A DNA stretch of 64,000 nt, taken from IMG/VR virus record IMGVR_UViG_3300037722_001090. The stretch is one strand, 5' to 3'. The translations under genes were made by a program, and so were the position numbers. The stretch is from a virus. Lineage: Duplodnaviria > Caudoviricetes. Shown here in pieces: positions 179-21,531 of the stretch (within the stretch, counting starts at the first letter, position 1; each line of letters opens with the position of its first letter). The notes below the pieces were generated by a model. That model was not told where the DNA came from. It ran no database searches and worked only from the letters and a program-made list of their open reading frames with translations.

Positions 179-264
179 TGGTACCCGACCCCGGACTCGA
201 ACCGGGACGCCTTGCGGCATGGGGCCTAAACCCAACGGCTATACCATAGTTCGCCTAGCCGGGC
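179..264 (-). tRNA. tRNA-Leu(TAG)
   Basis: Full cloverleaf, long variable arm, loop TT-TAG-GC, GTTCGAGTC T arm, CCA encoded. Confidence 0.92.
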
Positions 265-271
265 ACATTGT

Positions 272-787
272 TTAACCATTATATCCTTTAAACCACTCAT
301 CAAGCTCAGGATCTTTATGTCTTTTAACTATAAACTCATAAAGCATAGGCTGATAAGGTTTATAACTTTTCTTGAAATAGCTCATTCCAGCTTCTTCAGG
401 TGTTCTATCTGCTTTTTTCTGATTACAATCATGACAAGCAGATGCTACATTGTCCCAGGTAGTCTTACCTCCCTTAGAGGAAGGAACTACGTGTTCAATT
501 TCAAGTTGTTTTATGGTCAATGATGCGCCACAATAAACACAGCGATAGCCATCTCTTTCAACCATATTTTCTTTGCTGAATCTTAGTCGCTTACCATATA
601 GCCCTTTAGCTAAATCAAACAGCTTTATCTTCTTTGGAACGAAGCTAGTCTCACGTATATTACTCAAGTCACCTTCGTAATCAACAAGAAAGGCTTTGCC
701 GTTTTCAATCATATGCTTAGCGCGTCTGGTTGAAACTTTATTGATGCATGCAAAGTCAGCGTTGAGTACTGAAACTGACCCTTTCAT
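272..787 (-). CDS. HNH endonuclease (McrA-like)
   Basis: RDGYRCVYCG...EHVVPSSKGGKTTWDNVASACHDCNQKK HNH motif. Confidence 0.9.
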   Translation of the reverse strand: MKGSVSVLNADFACINKVSTRRAKHMIENGKAFLVDYEGDLSNIRETSFVPKKIKLFDLAKGLYGKRLRFSKENMVERDGYRCVYCGASLTIKQLEIEHVVPSSKGGKTTWDNVASACHDCNQKKADRTPEEAGMSYFKKSYKPYQPMLYEFIVKRHKDPELDEWFKGYNG

Positions 788-821
788 AATACACACTAGA
801 CCTTTCTTTTTATTTTATTGT

Positions 822-899
822 TGGTGTGACCGAGGAGATTTGAACTCCCGTTCATTGATTCACAGTCAATGCGATTAGCCTAGCTATCTTACAGTCACC
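822..899 (-). tRNA. tRNA-His(GTG)
   Basis: Cloverleaf, loop CT-GTG-AA, extra 5' G, CCA encoded. Confidence 0.9.
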
Positions 900-903
900 A
901 CAT

Positions 904-986
904 TGCAGGTACATGGGGAATCGAACCCAAAAGTGAAGAGTTTTGGAGGCTCTTGCTAACCCAGCTAGCTTTACACTCACGCACCT
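904..986 (-). tRNA. tRNA-Trp(CCA), enlarged D region, no encoded CCA
   Basis: Loop CT-CCA-AA, T arm GGG-TTCGATT-CCC, acceptor AGGTGCG/TGTACCT, ends GCA. Confidence 0.75.
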
Positions 987-989
987 AAA

Positions 990-1400
990 ATCGAGCTAGT
1001 TTTGTACATCGGAAACTAGCAACCTTCTGCTTACTTATCGTGTAAGTGTCCCAGACAATAAACATACAAATAAAGGGCAGGGTTTTTACCTGCATCAATA
1101 GACAATCCTTTCTTAAGGGACTGACCCTCACTAAAGAAGGTTACATATTTATATGCTTATTTTCATATAATGAGTTCTCTCCACTCAATAAGTCAAGCCT
1201 TGAAGCTACATGCAAGTCGCTATGCTTCTTACATATACCTTACCGTCAATACGGAGTATGCCGGCTTTCACCACTTTAATCAATAATCCACTCTTGGCGT
1301 TCCTTCCAAGCGATATCTGTCAATTCAGATCTAAATGGTGCGCATTCATTTTTATGGTACTCTTAGAGGGCTCGTAAGCCAAAACCATGCTATTATTGTT
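990..1400 (-). ncRNA. candidate structured ncRNA
   Basis: About 400 nt with no credible ORF inside the tRNA cluster; serial hairpins (gctagttt/aaactagc, gcagg/cctgc, ccgt/acgg, cttgg/ccaag). Confidence 0.35.
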
Positions 1401-1423
1401 CAGCGTTTAGGAAATATTATTTT

Positions 1424-1469
1424 TGGTTGGGATAACTGGATTTGAACCAGTGACCCCCGAGTTATCAGC
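1424..1469 (-). pseudogene. 3' half of split tRNA-Ile(GAT)
   Basis: GCTGATAA loop, T arm ACTGG-TTCAAAT-CCAGT, TATCCCA-A-CCA; the matching 5' half lies at 2077-2096. Confidence 0.8.
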
Positions 1470-1472
1470 TTT

Positions 1473-1546
1473 TGGTACGCTCACTAAGAATTGAACTTAG
1501 ATGGTCCGGTTATCAGCCGAATCCTCTACCGTTGAGGTATGAGCGT
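1473..1546 (-). tRNA. tRNA-Ile(GAT)
   Basis: Cloverleaf, loop CT-GAT-AA, acceptor ACGCTCA/TGAGCGT, CCA. Confidence 0.88.
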
Positions 1547-1599
1547 ATAGTTTCGAATTTAGTTATTAACACTTATCACATATTGATAAGGAGTTAATA

Positions 1600-2085
1600 A
1601 TGAATTCATGCTTAAATTGTAGTAAAGAAACACTTAATCCAGTATTTTGTTCACGCTCATGTTCTGCTTCCTATGCTAATAAAATAAAGCCAAAACGTAA
1701 GAAAGAGGGTAAATGTGCAATCTGTAATGAAATAATCTCTGCTTCAAGGGCTTATTGTTCAGATATTTGTCGTGGTAAAGCTAGATCTATTGCCCGTAAA
1801 AATTCTAAAGCAAAAACGGGATATGAAAATATAAAAACCCACCGGCAAAAAGTCAAATTAAGAGCCGTACAATATAAAGGAGATAAATGTCAAATATGTA
1901 ATTATGATAAAACACCAGTTAATCTATCATTTCATCATTTAAATCCAGGTAAAAAAGATTTTAACCTTAGTGGTAATTATCACTTAACCTGGGAGACAAT
2001 ACAGGCTGAACTTGATAAATGTATTTTATTATGTATGAATTGTCATGGAGAAGTTCATGTAGGAATTATAAAAATTCCAGACTGA
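1600..2085 (+). CDS. HNH homing endonuclease with N-terminal Cys-rich zinc fingers
   Basis: CxxC...CSxxC repeats, then CQICNYDK...HHLNP...KCILLCMNCHGEVH; antisense to the tRNA cluster. Confidence 0.88.
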   Translation: MNSCLNCSKETLNPVFCSRSCSASYANKIKPKRKKEGKCAICNEIISASRAYCSDICRGKARSIARKNSKAKTGYENIKTHRQKVKLRAVQYKGDKCQICNYDKTPVNLSFHHLNPGKKDFNLSGNYHLTWETIQAELDKCILLCMNCHGEVHVGIIKIPD

Positions 2086-2096
2086 GCTATACCCCA
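2077..2096 (-). pseudogene. 5' half of split tRNA-Ile
   Basis: TGGGGTA-TA-GCTC-AGTCTGG; TGGGGTA pairs with TATCCCA of the 3' half at 1424-1469. Confidence 0.7.
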
Positions 2097-2102
2097 ATAA
2101 AC

Positions 2103-2170
2103 TGTGGAAGAACTGACGAGTCATCGTCAACAGGATATCACTTGCAACCCTACAGGAGGGAAATTCTTCC
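2103..2170 (-). tRNA. degenerate tRNA-like gene
   Basis: Perfect acceptor GGAAGAA/TTCTTCC, T-like arm TGACG/CGTCA, no canonical D/T loop consensus. Confidence 0.4.
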
Positions 2171-2218
2171 ATAACTTTTTTTTAACTGGAGCGGGTAATC
2201 GGGCTACCTGCTTTTTAT

Positions 2219-2293
2219 TAGAGCGGATGGTCGGGATCGAACCGACGACAAACAGTTTGGAAAACTGCAATTCTACCACTGAATTACACCCGC
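2219..2293 (-). tRNA. tRNA-Gly(TCC)
   Basis: Cloverleaf, loop TT-TCC-AA; ends CTA instead of CCA. Confidence 0.92.
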
Positions 2294-2308
2294 ATTGAAC
2301 TTTTTAAC

Positions 2309-2393
2309 TAGTGGGACGGATAGGACTCGAACCTATGAAACCCGAAGGTGGAAGATTTACAGTCTTCTGCAATTGCCACTATGCGACTGTCCC
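2309..2393 (-). tRNA. tRNA-Tyr(GTA)
   Basis: Cloverleaf with long variable arm, loop CT-GTA-AA; ends CTA. Confidence 0.92.
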
Positions 2394-2424
2394 ATGATGC
2401 CACCCATAGGTGGACTTTTATTTA

Positions 2425-2760
2425 TTGATTGGCCCCCTTCTGATCTAAAGAGCATTTAATCAAATCCGCTTGAACCAATCTTCTAGATATAATTGAGGAT
2501 TTTCTTTATAGACGTGAACTCATCCTCTGCAAACATGTCTTTCCGATAAGAGTGTAGGATTATTTTATCTTACGGGAGCTTACTCCGCTACTTCAATACC
2601 GCTAGGCTTCACCTGATTGCTTATGTCAGTCACGCCATCACCGCACATAAGGCGTGCGTCCCAGTTTCCTCTTATCTAGCAACTCAAGCCATAGACGCCT
2701 GATCCGTTCAGGTCAATTAAGAACACGATATCACAATCGGCCCTCTATGGGTTTCGTATT
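2425..2760 (-). ncRNA. candidate structured ncRNA
   Basis: About 330 nt ORF-free; helices GATAAGAG/CTCTTATC, CACGCC/GGCGTG, CCTGA/TCAGG, GGAG/CTCC. Confidence 0.4.
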
Positions 2761-2814
2761 TGGTGCCAGACCAGCTGCAACCATGAATCACAGCTCTCTC
2801 GAGATCCGTCTGGC
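2761..2814 (-). ncRNA. miniature tRNA-like RNA with CCA end
   Basis: Perfect 7-bp GCCAGAC/GTCTGGC + A-CCA, internal AGCTG/CAGCT stem, only 54 nt. Confidence 0.55.
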
Positions 2815-2830
2815 TTTTTGTTAAACTAAT

Positions 2831-2905
2831 TGTGGACCCTATCGGGCTCGAACCGATAACCTCCTAAGTGCAAGTCAGGTGCTCCCCCAGTTGAGCTAAG
2901 GGCCC
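2831..2905 (-). tRNA. tRNA-Ala(TGC)
   Basis: Cloverleaf, loop CT-TGC-AC, G3:T70 pair; CCA not encoded. Confidence 0.92.
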
Positions 2906-2916
2906 ATTGTAAAATT

Positions 2917-2990
2917 TGGTCGAAAGTGATGGACTTTAACCACCGGCCTCCTCCACCCAAGGAGGTGCCCCTTCACCGGGCCGACTTTCG
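2917..2990 (-). tRNA. atypical tRNA-Pro-like gene with 6-nt anticodon loop
   Basis: C1:G72, A73, CCA; stem CCTCC/GGAGG closes TTGGGT; T loop TTAAAGT. Confidence 0.65.
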
Positions 2991-2997
2991 AAATTTT

Positions 2998-3076
2998 TGG
3001 ATGCGGATGCTAGATTTGAACTAGCGATCTTTTGGTTATGAGCCAAATGGGATAGGCCAGACTTCCCCAATCCGCA
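2998..3076 (-). tRNA. tRNA-Met(CAT)
   Basis: Cloverleaf, loop CT-CAT-AA, CCA. Confidence 0.88.
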
Positions 3077-3102
3077 AAACCATGTAGTTTTTTTTATGAA
3101 AC

Positions 3103-3600
3103 TTAAGAAAGCAAGTTCATTGCTTTAACAAACTTTGAAGCTCCAATGATTTCAGCAGCATCATAAAAAGCATTTACTTCTTCCTGCGTTGCAATACGCA
3201 TATTCTCTTCAGTAAAATGAGGAAGATTATTGCCTACAGCACCACCAATATCGACAGCATTCTTGCCTTGATATACAGCAATAAGCTCTCCAATAGCATA
3301 GCTATGACTGTTAGTATTGTCAAGAAGAAGAATCATAGCACCTTTGGGTGCTCCAAGGACAGAAGGCAGCAAAATATCTTTGGATTTAGTAGTGATCTTT
3401 TCACCAATAAGTTCTCCTACAATACCAATAATATCTCTTTTGCCACCAGAGCAAAAGTTACCCGATCCATTGATAAGAGCTAGAAGCTTTTTAGCCTTCT
3501 CACTAGGCTCTTTCTCTTTTTCAGTATAAGCTTTTTCAAGAATAGCAGACAATTGCTTTGTTGCTTCTAGAGACATTGCTCTAAGTTCTTTCAGATCCAT
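3103..3600 (-). CDS. hypothetical protein
   Basis: ORF; start moved to MDLKEL, which has a purine-rich RBS. Confidence 0.7.
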   Translation of the reverse strand: MDLKELRAMSLEATKQLSAILEKAYTEKEKEPSEKAKKLLALINGSGNFCSGGKRDIIGIVGELIGEKITTKSKDILLPSVLGAPKGAMILLLDNTNSHSYAIGELIAVYQGKNAVDIGGAVGNNLPHFTEENMRIATQEEVNAFYDAAEIIGASKFVKAMNLLS

Positions 3601-3637
3601 TTTAAAATTTCCTAAAAAGTTGTTTAAAGATACGGTG

Positions 3638-3988
3638 TTACATTTCAGAAATAAAACAATGACCATCATGTTCAACGGCCACACGAGTAGCAGGACCTAA
3701 AAGGTCACTATATTTACGAAGCCATAAACTGATTGTTGGTTGTGCTACACCAGTACTGAGAACGGCATTATAAAGCTCCTTGAACTTAATGGGAGCAGAA
3801 AATCTCCCACTTCTTCCACGGCCTAAGCGATAGTTAGGTCCAGCAGCAGCTTCAAGCTCTTTCGCAATAATACGGCGGGCTTTATATCCATATTGAGCAC
3901 CATGTGTAGGTACTCCTGGGATTTCTGCTTGTTGACGAAATTTCACTGCACGACAATCATTAAGCGCTTGTAAAAATTCCTTAGTCAT
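3638..3988 (-). CDS. hypothetical protein
   Basis: ORF with GAGG RBS, co-oriented with neighbours. Confidence 0.65.
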   Translation of the reverse strand: MTKEFLQALNDCRAVKFRQQAEIPGVPTHGAQYGYKARRIIAKELEAAAGPNYRLGRGRSGRFSAPIKFKELYNAVLSTGVAQPTISLWLRKYSDLLGPATRVAVEHDGHCFISEM

Positions 3989-4010
3989 ACTAAAAATTCC
4001 TCAAAAATGT

Positions 4011-4085
4011 TGGCGGCATAGACCGGGATTGAACCGGCAACTTCCTATTCGACAGACAGGCACTCTACCATTGAGTTACTACGCC
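4011..4085 (-). tRNA. tRNA-Asp(GTC)
   Basis: Cloverleaf, loop CT-GTC-GA, G73, CCA. Confidence 0.92.
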
Positions 4086-4094
4086 AGTTAATTT

Positions 4095-4177
4095 TGGCTC
4101 TGAGAGTTGGATTTGAACCAACGACCTCGCTTTTTAAAGGCGGCCACCTACGCGCTCTACCACTGAGCTATCTCAGA
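4095..4177 (-). tRNA. atypical tRNA with about 10 extra nt in the anticodon arm (loop CTTTAAA, possible TTA anticodon)
   Basis: Perfect acceptor TCTGAGA/TCTCAGA, canonical D and T arms, G-CCA; anticodon arm distorted. Confidence 0.7.
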
Positions 4178-4191
4178 ACACTATTCAGTTT

Positions 4192-4270
4192 TGGTTACCA
4201 GGACCGGAGTTGCACCGATGACCACCTACCCGTGTAGATAAGTAGCTCTTTTACTGAGTCTTACCCGGCA
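4192..4270 (-). tRNA. atypical tRNA, 8-nt anticodon loop ATCTACAC (TAC- or CTA-like)
   Basis: Acceptor TGCCGGG/CCTGGTA, T loop TGCAACT, CCA. Confidence 0.6.
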
Positions 4271-4284
4271 ACATAATTTTTTAT

Positions 4285-4360
4285 TAGCAGTCGCACCGAG
4301 GATCGAACTCGGCTCTCAATCTTGAAAGGATTGCGTCCTGGCCTACTAGACGATGCAACC
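4285..4360 (-). tRNA. tRNA-Glu(TTC)
   Basis: Cloverleaf, loop CT-TTC-AA; ends CTA. Confidence 0.92.
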
Positions 4361-4375
4361 AAAAACCTTAAGTAA

Positions 4376-4453
4376 TGGAGCCCACTATCGGATTCGAACC
4401 GATGACCTACGGGTTACAAATCCGTTGCTCTGGCCGAACTGAGCTAAGCGGGC
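4376..4453 (-). tRNA. tRNA-Thr(TGT)
   Basis: Cloverleaf, loop TT-TGT-AA, CCA. Confidence 0.93.
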
Positions 4454-4460
4454 AATTAAT

Positions 4461-4534
4461 TGGTGGGCCTTATCAGACGTTACCCTGATCCAACTGCATG
4501 TACTGTGCAGCTGAGCAACTTACACTATCGTCCC
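4461..4534 (-). tRNA. degenerate tRNA-like gene
   Basis: CCA end, GCTGC/GCAGT stem with 9-nt loop, ATCAG/CTGAT T-like stem, weak acceptor. Confidence 0.4.
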
Positions 4535-4560
4535 ATATTAAATTTTTTATTACTACTTAT

Positions 4561-4652
4561 TGGCTCCCCAGAGTGGGCTCGAACCACTATACCGCTCTCG
4601 CGGAATACACTTGATTAACAGTCAAGCCTCTTACCAATTAGAGTACCGAGGA
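4561..4652 (-). tRNA. tRNA-Asn(GTT) with long variable arm
   Basis: Loop CT-GTT-AA, G73, CCA; extra CCGC-GAGA-GCGG hairpin in the variable region. Confidence 0.88.
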
Positions 4653-5189
4653 ATGGTATTTTTTATATCTTTTTCTTACAGCAGCTTCAGAAATATCTAG
4701 TATCTCTGAAATTTGTACATTAGTCATGGTCTTTTTTAGTTCTGTTAAATCTATTTTATCCCAATTGACTTTTCCTGATAGCTTAGCTGCACAATTATGA
4801 GAACAAGTTTTATTATACATTGGTTTTGAAGCACCACAAACAGGACACTCATTAATTTTAACAGTTATCATCTTGTATTCAGCATATTTTTCATTAAAAT
4901 ATTGTTTAACTTCAGGACTAGTTCTTATTCCTGAATGTATTTCGCAATGACAATTATGACATAAAAGAATACATTTTCTTAATTCTATAATAATTTTTTC
5001 CCAAGCCTTAGGATTACCTCTTATTGCTCCAAGAGTAAATTCTTTTTTACTAGGATCAAGATGGTGCAAAGCTAACGCGTCATTACACTTATCATATCCA
5101 CAACAAGAGCATTTACCTCCCATTGATAATACAATTCTTTCTTTTGTTTTTTTACGCCACTCTTTAACACGCTCAGAACCTTCACTCAT
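4638..5189 (-). CDS. HNH homing endonuclease with C-terminal zinc finger and HTH
   Basis: CSCCGYDK...HHLDP...KCILLCHNCHCEIH, then CPVCG...CSHNC and an HTH-like C-terminus; stop codon lies inside tRNA-Asn. Confidence 0.88.
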   Translation of the reverse strand: MSEGSERVKEWRKKTKERIVLSMGGKCSCCGYDKCNDALALHHLDPSKKEFTLGAIRGNPKAWEKIIIELRKCILLCHNCHCEIHSGIRTSPEVKQYFNEKYAEYKMITVKINECPVCGASKPMYNKTCSHNCAAKLSGKVNWDKIDLTELKKTMTNVQISEILDISEAAVRKRYKKYHSSVL

Positions 5190-5279
5190 AGAACCTCCAA
5201 CATAATTATTAACTATACATGTTAATAACTACATTATGGTTCTAAGAGTTTTACATTTTTAAAACGAGCACTGGGAGCT

Positions 5280-5334
5280 TGGTACTCTCTATCACGATCA
5301 AGTCGTGCTTCGCCTACCAGTTTTATCTAGTACT
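5280..5334 (-). ncRNA. miniature tRNA-like RNA candidate
   Basis: CCA end, CACGA/TCGTG hairpin, short terminal GTACT/AGTAC pairing. Confidence 0.3.
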
Positions 5335-5356
5335 TAGACTCATTTTAATAATTTAT

Positions 5357-5429
5357 TACCCAAGAACAAACGAAAACAGTGTTGGTTTCAATTCAAAGGT
5401 GAAGTAACTGTTTTCTAACACTATGGGTA
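5357..5429 (-). ncRNA. short Y-RNA-like hairpin RNA (paralogue of 6131-6284)
   Basis: TACCCA/TGGGTA and GAAAACAG/CTGTTTTC stems; shares TAGTGnTAGA...AGTTACTTC and TCG..TGTTCT with 6131-6284. Confidence 0.6.
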
Positions 5430-5448
5430 TATTTTTAACTTTTTCTTA

Positions 5449-5525
5449 TGGTCGGAATAGCAAGAATCGAACTTGCGACCTCTCCCTCCCAAGGGGAGCG
5501 CTCTACCAGGCTGAGCCATATTCCG
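5449..5525 (-). tRNA. tRNA-Pro(TGG)
   Basis: Cloverleaf, loop CT-TGG-GA, CCA. Confidence 0.93.
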
Positions 5526-7455: not shown

Positions 7456-8883
7456 TTAAGCAGCATGAATAGCAAGAGACTTTTCATACTCACGAACATA
7501 GTCAATAGTTGCTTCAGAGAAGCCGTTGACATGAGTCCATTTGGAATTGTAGCCAACACCATTTTCATAGCTAGCAACATTGATAATATAGCCAAGCCCA
7601 TTAGGCTGTGCAATGCCAGTTTGGCTCTGTTCGTCAGTAAAGACGATGATACGGTCATACTTGCCATTAGTCTTGTTAATATACTCAACAGCACGATGAA
7701 GATCAGTACCGCCAAATCGCTGACTGTTCTTAATAGCCTCACGAAGAGCAAATCCACGACGAGGAGCAATCTGCTTAACGTCAGTAGAAAAGCTATAGAC
7801 ATCAACTTCTTCGCAAACTTCACGAGCAAGCATAGCAATGCCAAAGGCTGCATCCATACGAGTCATTTCGCTTTTGTCAGACATCTTAGCGCACATGGAA
7901 CCAGAGACGTCAACAAGAAGGATAGTCTTACCAGCAATCTTCTCTTGTACATCAAGACATTTCAGCATACCAGTTTCAAGAGCATCTTCATACTGAGGAG
8001 CATAGTTCGCAGCAGTAATGAAGCGATAAGGAAGAACACGTTCAGGGTTCATGCTACGAAGCGCATTCTTGATTAAGGCAGGATCAACGCCAGCTTCAGT
8101 CATTCCGCGCAAGTTACGAAGAAGTGCCAACGCACCAAGAAGATTTTTTTGCTCAGGATCAAGATTAGCATTCAGCATACGAGTGAACGTATCCTTTTTA
8201 TTCTCACCAGCGGACAGATTAGTTTCCCAGGTATCAGGAGTTGCAAGAGTGTCAGCTGCCAACTTTGCCCAGAGTGCAGCCTGAGCAGCATCCTTAGGTT
8301 TAGCGTGGCACAAGAATAGCACGTCGCGGAGCTTAATGGCACTGTTGCGATTGTATTTCGCAAGAGAATACTCATCAAACTTAGTGAACGCACGAGCAAG
8401 ACCCTTTTTCACGGAAGCTGCAATAGGAGTCTTCTTGAATACGCGCTCAGTAGTAAGCCGCATGCTGTCATAGTAGCCGTATCCTTTAGTAGCCTTTGTC
8501 TCAGTTTCCGTCCAATACATAGCAAGAAACTCAGCAAGCTCATCAGGACGCTGAATAACAGCCTCAAGAGCATCAGCGACAATATGACGATGAGTCGGAA
8601 TGCGAGCAGCCTCACGAACTAGCATGAGAGGGGCATGCCGCAGTTTAAAAGCAGTACGAGCCTCAAGCGCAAGAGCAGCAACAGTTTCCGGAGGAACAGT
8701 TGCTACCAAATTTTTGATACGCTCAGACACAGAAATACCATCTTCGTAAAAGTTATCCTCAAACAGAAGACAACCAAGAATAGTACGACGAAGCATCTCT
8801 TCGTTTTTTGCTACAACCACACTTGCGCCTGCATGATTGAGGGATCGGATAGCACGAGGTGCTGGTTTATTTGTTTTCGCCAT
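7456..8883 (-). CDS. rsr: Ro60/Rsr RNA-binding protein (TROVE + vWA)
   Basis: TROVE signature (LRHAPL, IQRPDELAEFLA, FDEYSLAKY, LRDVLFLCHAKP, ALLRNLR, VLPYRFITA) and vWA MIDAS DVSGS...FTDEQ. Confidence 0.95.
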   Translation of the reverse strand: MAKTNKPAPRAIRSLNHAGASVVVAKNEEMLRRTILGCLLFEDNFYEDGISVSERIKNLVATVPPETVAALALEARTAFKLRHAPLMLVREAARIPTHRHIVADALEAVIQRPDELAEFLAMYWTETETKATKGYGYYDSMRLTTERVFKKTPIAASVKKGLARAFTKFDEYSLAKYNRNSAIKLRDVLFLCHAKPKDAAQAALWAKLAADTLATPDTWETNLSAGENKKDTFTRMLNANLDPEQKNLLGALALLRNLRGMTEAGVDPALIKNALRSMNPERVLPYRFITAANYAPQYEDALETGMLKCLDVQEKIAGKTILLVDVSGSMCAKMSDKSEMTRMDAAFGIAMLAREVCEEVDVYSFSTDVKQIAPRRGFALREAIKNSQRFGGTDLHRAVEYINKTNGKYDRIIVFTDEQSQTGIAQPNGLGYIINVASYENGVGYNSKWTHVNGFSEATIDYVREYEKSLAIHAA

Positions 8884-14286: not shown

Positions 14287-14510
14287 TTTACATTCCTTTT
14301 AATGACGGGTTATTTTTCTTTAGTGGAAATTTCTTTCTCACCAACATAAAGTTCGTGAGCTTTTTCCTGAATCGTGTTAATTTTGCTTTTAACACTGACG
14401 AGCTTATCGGTTGTATATTCACAACCAAGATAAAACCCAAGCGTAAAAAACATCAAAGCAATGATAAGTGATTTCATTGTACGTCTCCTGAAGTTGATAC
14501 TTAAAAAAAT

Positions 14511-14653
14511 CTATTCACAGCGGATTTGCACCTATATCTATTGACTTATGTTCTCCTGTGTATCTCACAGTTAACATTACGCTAAGAATAGCAAAAGACT
14601 TCCTGCTGTCTCCTCCTTTAAAGGGAGGCGCTCTCCTACTAAGCTAGTGAATA
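14511..14653 (-). tRNA. tRNA (anticodon TTA) interrupted by a 72-nt insertion in the T arm
   Basis: Acceptor TATTCAC/GTGAATA, D GCTT/GAGC, CCTCC-CTTTAAA-GGAGG; T stem AGC|GG-TGCAAAT-CCGCT split by 14533-14604. Confidence 0.7.
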
Positions 14654-14836
14654 GAAAATCTGAGTTTATCCTACGGCTCCACATGCTATAACTCTAGGTT
14701 ACATGTTTCACTGCCGGTAAATGATAATTGCCACTAAGTCTCTTATCTCAGAATGGAAACGCAGCCGATCTCTATGTATCGGCTCGATTTTCTTGGCAAT
14801 AAAACAATTAAAATCTTTTTCATACTTCTTCTAAAA

Positions 14837-14895
14837 TGGAGCCGGGGCATGGGTGCTACCCATTACGGCAACTAGTATTTTATCCGATTCCCGGC
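14837..14895 (-). ncRNA. miniature tRNA-like RNA with CCA end
   Basis: GCCGGG/CCCGGC + T-CCA, ATGGG/CCCAT T-like hairpin, no D or anticodon arms. Confidence 0.5.
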
Positions 14896-15014
14896 ATAAA
14901 CGTATTTGATAATTCAAAGAATAGCTCGGAGACACGCATGTCATTCTCCCATTTCGCCATAGTTGCCCGATAGTTTTTAGCTGGACACTATTCTTTATTA
15001 ATACTGATTGGTCA

Positions 15015-15299
15015 CTTGCTCCTTAAAGCACACAAAACCAAGCTCATTTACTGTTCTTGTCGACAGAACAGATAGCCTCGTTTGTCTATGACAATTCTAA
15101 ATTACTAGCGTCACCATTAACCTATCCAAGAGGCGGTGTGGTTTTTGGTTGCGGGAAGAGCAGCTAGTTTATAATATAAACTCCCTCACTCTTATCCATG
15201 GATCTTGCTGCGCGCATTACACCTATAACCTGCTTGAGAGCAGGCTTCAAGGTCGCAACCAGTGACGGTAACTCAGCTTTGTGTGCTTTAAGCAGCAAG
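15015..15299 (-). ncRNA. candidate structured RNA closed by a 22-bp inverted repeat
   Basis: cttgctccttaaagcacacaaa (15015-36) vs tttgtgtgctttaagcagcaag (15278-99); nested cgtcac/gtgacg and tggttgcg/cgcaacca. Confidence 0.55.
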
Positions 15300-15454
15300 C
15301 GTCCACCTATTTCGTAGTTCAGTGGACGCTTACTACCTCTTCAGAGATCAAACAGTAGTCTTGATAGACTTATAACCATTTCCGGCCATTAGCAGGATGG
15401 TATCTATCGTGAAAGTCGTATAAATTTTCACTTAAAAAATGATCTTACTTGAGC

Positions 15455-15907: not shown

Positions 15908-15956
15908 AATCTGTACTCCTTTGTTGGTTGTTTAAAAAAGAATTAACTAAAAAGCT

Positions 15957-17077
15957 CCAGCTTTGCACTGGTAAGTCGGGGCCTTAACTTAATACAATAG
16001 GCTTCTCCATATGCATTAACCAGTTTTCTCGAAATAAAATTAGCTGATTTCACAGGCAGCCGTACTAGGCTCTTTAAATAATTCCCGTTTCTTCACTTAG
16101 CCGGATAATTATACGGCACCAATAATTCGATAACCACAATAGGTATACATACTTCAGTCTTTGTCTAACCATCGTTGTTCCTGCCACCACTAGCTTACGG
16201 TTCTCAGATGGATTGCAAGAAAGATTTTAGGTGGATATCTCCCATATGCAATGACTAGACTCCTCTCACGAACGTCTTATTTGAGTATTATTAGACGTTA
16301 TCTTGCTCCTTATCACCGAACACAGCAGCAGCTTTATTATACCGTCCTCAATAGTGAGGGTTTCAGTGGCGCTGAACTAATCAACTGTGAACCAATTACG
16401 ACAATAAGGCAACGTTTCTCAACTCGACAAGATTTGGGGCCTTAGAATTTTGTATCTAGATAAATCAAGCGCTCTTCAGCATACCCCTTTTCAGTTACTT
16501 GGTTTATTGTCCCAAGCAAGTATACACCGCGTCATTGATTCCATATCCACGTCAGGACTTAGGAGTGCTTTTCGCACTAATCTATTACAGTCTCCCACAC
16601 TTTTTAGTTAAACTAAAAATATAAATACACTAGGTCAAAGGGAACGGCTACCTAGTATTGCCCGTCAAAGATATTTAGGCTCTATGATATACCCCTATTT
16701 GAAATCATAGACAGTCCATTGATCTTACGCTCAGTGTCAAGGACAAATTAAGCCAGATTTTCATCACTGTCCATTCAGTCACAGTCAACTCGTTAGTTAG
16801 TCGGACGTCTGTCATAGCTGGATACCAAATAAGACATCAATACTCGCCAGACAAAGTAAAGATGAATACTTACTCTTAAAAGCACCTTATTCCTATATTC
16901 GGTACAATCCTAAGACATTATCCCTCAAGTGGCCGGTTTATCCACGCTTCCCAGGTCATTCGTTATTGGAAGTATCCACTAGGATTGAGTAAGCACCAGT
17001 TGTTAGTCGGGAGATTGCACCATATCAGGCTACCCATAAATTTCTGCGAATTACAGCAGCAGGGACTAACAAGCTGG
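15957..17077 (-). ncRNA. candidate 1.1-kb large structured ncRNA
   Basis: No sense-strand ORF of 60 aa or more; ends CCAGCTT/AAGCTGG are complementary; many hairpins, including GTGC-GAAAA-GCAC. Confidence 0.5.
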
Positions 17078-21401: not shown

Positions 21402-21531
21402 TGGGAGGGGGAGGTAGGAATCGAACCTACAATCTCAGCCTTTACATGTTCTCAACGCATGTGGGATACTACTAGGCACTCATGATTACCTATTTTCACC
21501 AGCTGGGCTTTACCAATTAAGCTACTCCCCC
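21402..21531 (-). tRNA. tRNA with about 60 nt inserted in the anticodon loop
   Basis: GGGGGAG/CTCCCCC acceptor, GCTT-AATTGGTA-AAGC D arm, GTAGG-TTCGATT-CCTAC T arm; CAGCT/GGCTG stem encloses about 60 nt. Confidence 0.75.

Follow-up and report, generated by a model that had tools for sequence, protein, structure and literature searches.

Here we describe an interrupted tRNA gene of 143 nt from a large tailed phage, found in a 64,000-nt stretch of DNA (hereafter the window), where it runs from 14653 to 14511 on the minus strand. The feature is real: its two parts make a complete tRNA once a 72-nt insert is taken out of the T stem. Comparison with a sister allele leads us to propose, tentatively (probability about 0.45), that a DNA insertion stopped a suppressor-type gene from acting as a decoder and that the gene has been kept as an unspliced tRNA-shaped RNA. 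The gene and its insert are made up as follows.

14511-14653, minus strand: whole interrupted tRNA gene, 143 nt (Rfam tRNA match 26.6 bits, below the cut-off of 29)
14605-14653, minus strand: 5' tRNA part, comprising acceptor strand, D arm, anticodon arm, 4-nt variable loop and T-stem bases 49-51
14619-14621, minus strand: anticodon UUA (CUA in the sister strain L037)
14533-14604, minus strand: 72-nt insert between T-stem positions 51 and 52, in the register that gives a 5/5 T stem and a short variable loop
14585-14593, minus strand: TGCTATTCT motif, not conserved in L037
14536-14599, minus strand: helix of 8 bp that may close the insert (14599-14592 with 14543-14536), fully paired in L037 and with one U-U mismatch in the window
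14548-14577, minus strand: inner hairpin within the insert, made of two 5-bp helices, with the same stems in both alleles
14553-14557, minus strand: Shine-Dalgarno-like AGGAG with no start codon behind it
14511-14532, minus strand: 3' tRNA part, comprising G52-G53, T loop with G55, T-stem 3' strand, acceptor 3' strand and G73
14503-14509, minus strand: run of seven T immediately past the closing helix, a possible 3' end signal

The acceptor stem (14653-14647 with 14518-14512) has all 7 pairs, starting with U1-A72, and is followed by G73 at 14511 with no encoded CCA. The D arm spans 14644-14630, and the anticodon arm (14628-14612) has a perfectly paired 5-bp stem and a 7-nt loop. The T stem begins as AGC (14607-14605), breaks off for 72 nt and resumes as GG from 14532, with the loop TGCAAAT. 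As encoded, the gene lacks a continuous T arm and receives no call from ARAGORN. Once 14604-14533 is excised, the program reports a 71-nt tRNA-Stop(tta), a cloverleaf with 7/4/5/5-bp stems, 7-nt anticodon and T loops and canonical U33, A37 and A38, and it calls both excised alleles. Many other deletions are also accepted by ARAGORN; this one gives the 5/5 T stem and a normal short variable loop. By a rough analytic estimate, the chance of finding such a 3' tRNA half within 150 nt is about 1e-8. The initial annotation was thus right that removal of 14533-14604 restores a tRNA with a UUA anticodon, and right about T1:A72 and G73. Its label 'Gln-like' holds for 1:72 and G73 and fails for pairs 2:71 (A-U) and 3:70 (U-A), and the near-textbook tRNA that it described departs from the textbook at position 55, where the base is G, not U. 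G55 is a normal phage tRNA subtype rather than a sign of decay, because among the fetched loci G55 T loops go with a missing D-loop GG (25/27 versus 9/525, P 1e-33) and the D loop of the L037 allele is of this type without GG, as usual alongside G55.

The window comes from a large tailed phage (the longest contig with the same proteins has 205,327 bp, or ~205 kb) and encodes terminase, capsid, Ro60, RlaP, TerB, TerC, a CCA-adding enzyme and a metallophosphoesterase, with 14 tRNA calls at 179-5525. Its genetic code is standard and TAA is the commonest stop, ending 46 of 70 open reading frames, which rules out a recoding of TAA. A ~1-kb non-coding tract separates terB from a 55-codon gene; the interrupted gene closes this tract and is on the transcribed strand. 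No sigma-70 promoter or terminator stood above chance. The sequence of the interrupted gene is identical in two other assemblies (L024 and L027), so an assembly error is excluded, and the equal distance from terB to the next gene in two further assemblies likewise argues against an artefact.

The sister strain L037, 98% identical over 3.9 kb, carries the same insert. Over the 143 nt the two alleles differ by eight substitutions: the D loop has one, anticodon base 34 another (giving CUA, amber) and the insert six, one of which abolishes TGCTATTCT, the sister strain having TGCCATTCT there. Synonymous divergence is 10% in terB and 6% when pooled with terC. The insert has changed at about this rate (6/72, P 0.44-0.79), in contrast to the core of the neighbouring long structured RNA (0/326, P 3e-5). 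None of the 42 paired tRNA bases has changed (P 0.012-0.07 against 10% and 6%), and all 21 base pairs are intact in both alleles where about 3-4 changes at paired bases would be expected, although this estimate of constraint is rough, coming as it does from two alleles only and from a region of patchy divergence. The comparison gives modest evidence that the tRNA frame has been kept by selection and the insert sequence has not. Five of the six insert changes fall in the 25 nt adjoining the 5' junction, and those in the inner hairpin affect its loop only. There are no compensatory (two-sided) changes between the alleles, and one G-U/A-U change; where a change affects the structural model, the window allele holds the weaker state.

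The anticodon of the original gene was probably CUA, as 37 of the intact tRNAs that we fetched carry CUA and one UUA (of 646, a set enriched by a search pattern that permitted both), and a model of the element finds an intact CUA tRNA as its best non-self match. The acceptor strand has a G+C count of 2, below that of every one of the 37. Twenty-two viral matches to this anticodon arm are intact sense tRNAs, and its single metagenome match with UUA is also interrupted (L023). That tRNA-like gene (834-945, minus strand) sits in a phage-like tRNA cluster and matches the UUA anticodon arm exactly; its D loop bears a hairpin of ~35 nt, its acceptor has two U-U mismatches, and it encodes a CCA. The one case fits the idea that UUA is tolerated only in non-decoding RNAs. 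Neither the 'ochre' anticodon nor the 'promoter' motif of the initial annotation is conserved, because L037 has CUA and no TGCTATTCT; UUA is not kept as it would be in an active ochre suppressor. The conditional ochre suppressor that had been suggested is weakened by this CUA, by the lack of a splice motif in any register and by the use of TAA as the main stop. The suggestion that the insertion neutralises a toxic tRNA fares better, in that folding predicts such an effect, but the gene that took up the insert probably had an amber anticodon, with UUA seemingly a product of later drift.

No bulge-helix-bulge (BHB) motif with three or more pairs could be placed in any register of either allele, and the single 3-nt bulge present (14535-14533) would put the cut one base off. 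Group I introns have a catalytic core of about 200 nt or more, a U before the 5' site and a terminal G, and group II introns have six domains, including domain V, over several hundred nt. The insert, with 72 nt, an exon ending in C, a last base A and no Rfam match, is too small for either, as the initial annotation had said. It also lacks the T-loop segment seen in Lak-type introns. In the thermodynamic ensemble of the unspliced RNA, the acceptor helix has a pairing probability of 0.97 and the D, anticodon and T stems of 0-0.04, against 0.6-0.9 for these three stems in the excised form; such predictions ignore tertiary contacts, penalise multi-way junctions and are suggestive only. On this footing the unspliced RNA is predicted to lose the cloverleaf. 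No convincing stop-gated target was found in the window.

The insert is plausibly a captured intergenic piece. It is laid out as motif, leader and Shine-Dalgarno sequence with the start codon absent, and within the window it matches the Ro60 gene end and spacer best (36/47 nt; P 0.02, or 0.05 with the common motif fixed). The promoter-like motif that had been pointed out does occur at 14593-14585, and the window as a whole has more copies of it than chance would give (15 TGCTATTCT versus 1.2 expected), but it is lost in L037; it is dispensable, and probably incidental, in the insert. TGCTATTC(T) is the most over-represented 8-9-mer of the window (23 versus 4.7 expected), nearly always on the transcribed strand, and 5 of the 23 sites precede a ribosome-binding site and ATG, against a background of 5.5%, so the motif may be a real signal elsewhere. 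GTTA(A/T)TAAC occurs 25-40 nt upstream of several nuclease-like genes. Among the other structures considered for the locus, a 43-codon open frame through the gene was rejected on inspection by eye, as there is no start behind its Shine-Dalgarno-like sites. A class II tRNA (long variable arm plus a 48-nt insert) was likewise rejected, as it would leave a 6-nt linker and its hairpin registers differ between the alleles, and nested tRNA, hammerhead and HDV-like folds found no match by eye or in Rfam.

No homologue was found in cultured phages and plasmids, none beyond the sister strain by IMG/VR patterns and in GTDB contigs, none by a script for T-stem-split tRNAs run over about 2 Mb of fetched loci, and no distant one with a covariance model of the element. 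The relatives with the same boundaries that the initial annotation had called for thus come down to the 98%-identical L037, and the uninterrupted alleles that it had also asked for were absent from the few, fragmentary relatives available. Among the TerB-linked related phages, the L035 group (L035 and L038) is without the tract and the L034 contig stops before the site. Two candidates were set aside: the L034 tRNA-like RNA after terB matches window 14996-14915, not the interrupted tRNA, by position and sequence, and the three Leu-like RNAs of L254-L256, which share GGAGACAGC, have an intact T arm, no match to the model and are unrelated.

In the mechanism that we propose, a 72-bp DNA segment would have entered between T-stem bases 51 and 52 of a phage amber-suppressor-type tRNA gene before the two strains split, a timing that rests on the insert they share and, for the amber ancestry, on the probable ancestral CUA. 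The insert would stay in the RNA, and the 143-nt RNA would be made together with the non-coding RNA cluster downstream of terB, retain its acceptor helix, bear the insert as a hairpin arm and take no part in decoding. Because such an RNA could not decode, a C-to-U change at base 34 would have been tolerated even though most genes end in UAA. The tRNA stems would still be under weak selection, most likely for a putative role as a scaffold in processing or stability, or as a decoy resembling a tRNA. We liken this putative role to that of other tRNA-shaped RNAs of the same phage, which have extra domains and in one case a diverged ortholog. The predicted loss of the cloverleaf speaks against a good tRNA mimic and thus against this proposal. 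Both anticodons can read UAG, and excision gives the perfect T stem that a spliced tRNA needs, which also count against it, as do the small number of alleles (two), the lack of compensatory change and the lack of a distant homologue.

Much of the same evidence bears on two other explanations. Stray intergenic DNA (motif, leader and Shine-Dalgarno sequence) or the remnant of a larger cassette may have landed in a redundant amber suppressor gene and left a dead, decaying locus. The insert behaves accordingly, changing like synonymous sites and unlike the neighbouring structured RNA; the weaker state lies with the window allele, the likeness to the Ro60 gene end and spacer (P 0.02-0.05) is weak, and the whole tract is missing from L035 and L038. 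Yet a pseudogene should show some changes at the bases of its 21 pairs, and the perfect register fits no target-site duplication; we consider it unlikely. Conserved stems around a drifting insert are also what introns show, and a phage or host nuclease cutting at 51/52, with a ligase joining the halves, would yield a late or conditional suppressor reading UAG and, in the window strain, UAA as well. One excision does give a full cloverleaf with the canonical loop bases, UAG is readable by both alleles, the phage has genes for RNA handling (CCA enzyme, RlaP, Ro60 and a metallophosphoesterase), and unexplained tRNA introns exist in Lak phages (PMC6784885). Against this stand the missing BHB and tRNA-shaped (T-loop) intron fold, the clustering of insert changes beside the 5' junction, the lack of an uninterrupted allele or a second lineage with these boundaries, the read-through of the main stop that an active UUA tRNA would cause and a window without a convincing stop-gated target. 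Protein splicing is on balance somewhat less likely than decay, and slightly less probable still is the fuller claim that a stop-codon suppressor tRNA in a standard-code phage is gated by a protein-spliced intron whose site, the T stem, we did not find described for bacteria or phages.

A tRNA-shaped Y RNA, with the insert as a permuted Ro60-binding arm, is very improbable. The phage encodes Ro60 (7456-8883), and 14586-14573 loosely resembles the 3' strand of the phage's Y RNA stems. However, the resemblance is weaker in L037, the insert has neither the Ro-binding motif GNCGAAN0-1G nor this phage's TAGTGWTAG variant, and there is no YrlA match. The Ro60 gene is on the same strand at a distance of 5.6 kb, the guide value for a YrlA or Y RNA being about 4 kb.

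Other tRNA-shaped and structured RNAs occur in this phage and in others. On the minus strand of the window, the RNA at 21403-21531 has a tRNA body in which a 53-nt two-hairpin domain replaces the anticodon loop; it is a conserved RNA, because a diverged ortholog in a related phage (L247 2331-2458) has retained the fold together with its TCATGA loop and ATGTAAA end, whereas the T-stem-split tRNA has only the sister strain. Also in L247, a tRNA-like gene (1994-2072) whose D loop is enlarged and whose anticodon loop has 9 nt follows a ~600-nt non-coding tract. After terB (all minus strand) come the long structured RNA (15014-15400; no Rfam family), with no change in 326 nt between the strains and a diverged homologue with matching closing stems at about 2085-2335 in L034; directly after it, a small RNA with a 9-bp closing stem (14915-14996), whose L034 counterpart (2344-2455) has a tRNA-like T arm ending ACCA nested within; and a mini tRNA-like fold of about 60 nt (14836-14895) with a 6-bp closing stem, a small hairpin and the 3' end UCCA, the same in L037. 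Between terC and terB lies a 1.17-kb non-coding tract (15908-17077) without an Rfam family; it is absent from L034, where the two genes abut. Two non-canonical tRNA-like genes, also on the minus strand, stand at 4095-4177 (extra bases past the D arm, odd CUUUAAAAA loop) and 4190-4272 (long anticodon stem, 4-nt loop, G55 T loop). SPbeta/phi3T-like and Leuconostoc phages (L254-L256) carry an unannotated family of Leu-like tRNA-shaped RNAs without an anticodon arm, with conserved GGAGACAGC, a large variable domain and no Rfam match.

To our knowledge, nobody has shown either way whether insert-bearing tRNA genes of large phages are spliced. The present gene, which reads a stop codon and has its insert in the T stem, makes a convenient test case, with stop read-through as the read-out and two natural alleles. 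Splicing here would mean that a bacterial cell can splice tRNAs independently of the position of the insert, and that suppression can be timed in a new way. If the RNA is not spliced, it is another tRNA-shaped phage RNA or a relic, and a caution that drift in disabled amber genes can produce UUA 'ochre suppressors'.

Several known systems invite comparison. YrlA Y RNAs (Chen et al. 2014, PMC4201824) are likewise tRNA-shaped RNAs of a Ro60-encoding genome, as is this phage RNA, which is non-decoding by prediction; they carry the GNCGAAN0-1G motif and mimic the D, T and acceptor arms within a terminal stem, whereas the RNA here follows the normal order of tRNA parts, includes a full anticodon arm and lacks the Ro motif. 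Archaeal tRNA introns in the T arm are known at 53/54, 56/57 and 59/60 (PMC4090602), and archaeal and algal non-canonical introns share T-arm insertion with our case. They need a splicing endonuclease and a BHB, a 4-bp helix between two 3-nt bulges holding the cut sites (PMC4090602), or a relaxed BHB; here there is no BHB, and the phage is bacterial. The phage amber suppressor tRNAs Sup-CUA (10.1101/2021.08.26.457843) have the same D stem GCUU, loop CUCUAAA (as in the L037 allele) and short variable loop, but are uninterrupted with G+C-richer acceptor stems, in contrast to the split T stem and, in the window allele, UUA seen here. For Lak megaphages, tRNA introns termed 'enigmatic' (Devoto et al. 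2019, PMC6784885) again involve a large phage and a tRNA body split by about 70-110 nt, with no Rfam match and no known splicing route. The Lak inserts that are readable in that source lie in the anticodon loop, contain a T-loop-like segment and are identical across cohorts, one having intronless alleles (PMC6784885); compared with these, the present insert lies in the T stem, is without a T loop, drifts and splits a stop-reading tRNA. In the literature searched, we came across no phage tRNA described as having an insert in the T stem, and on that basis the present gene would stand apart among insert-bearing phage tRNA genes by where its insert lies.
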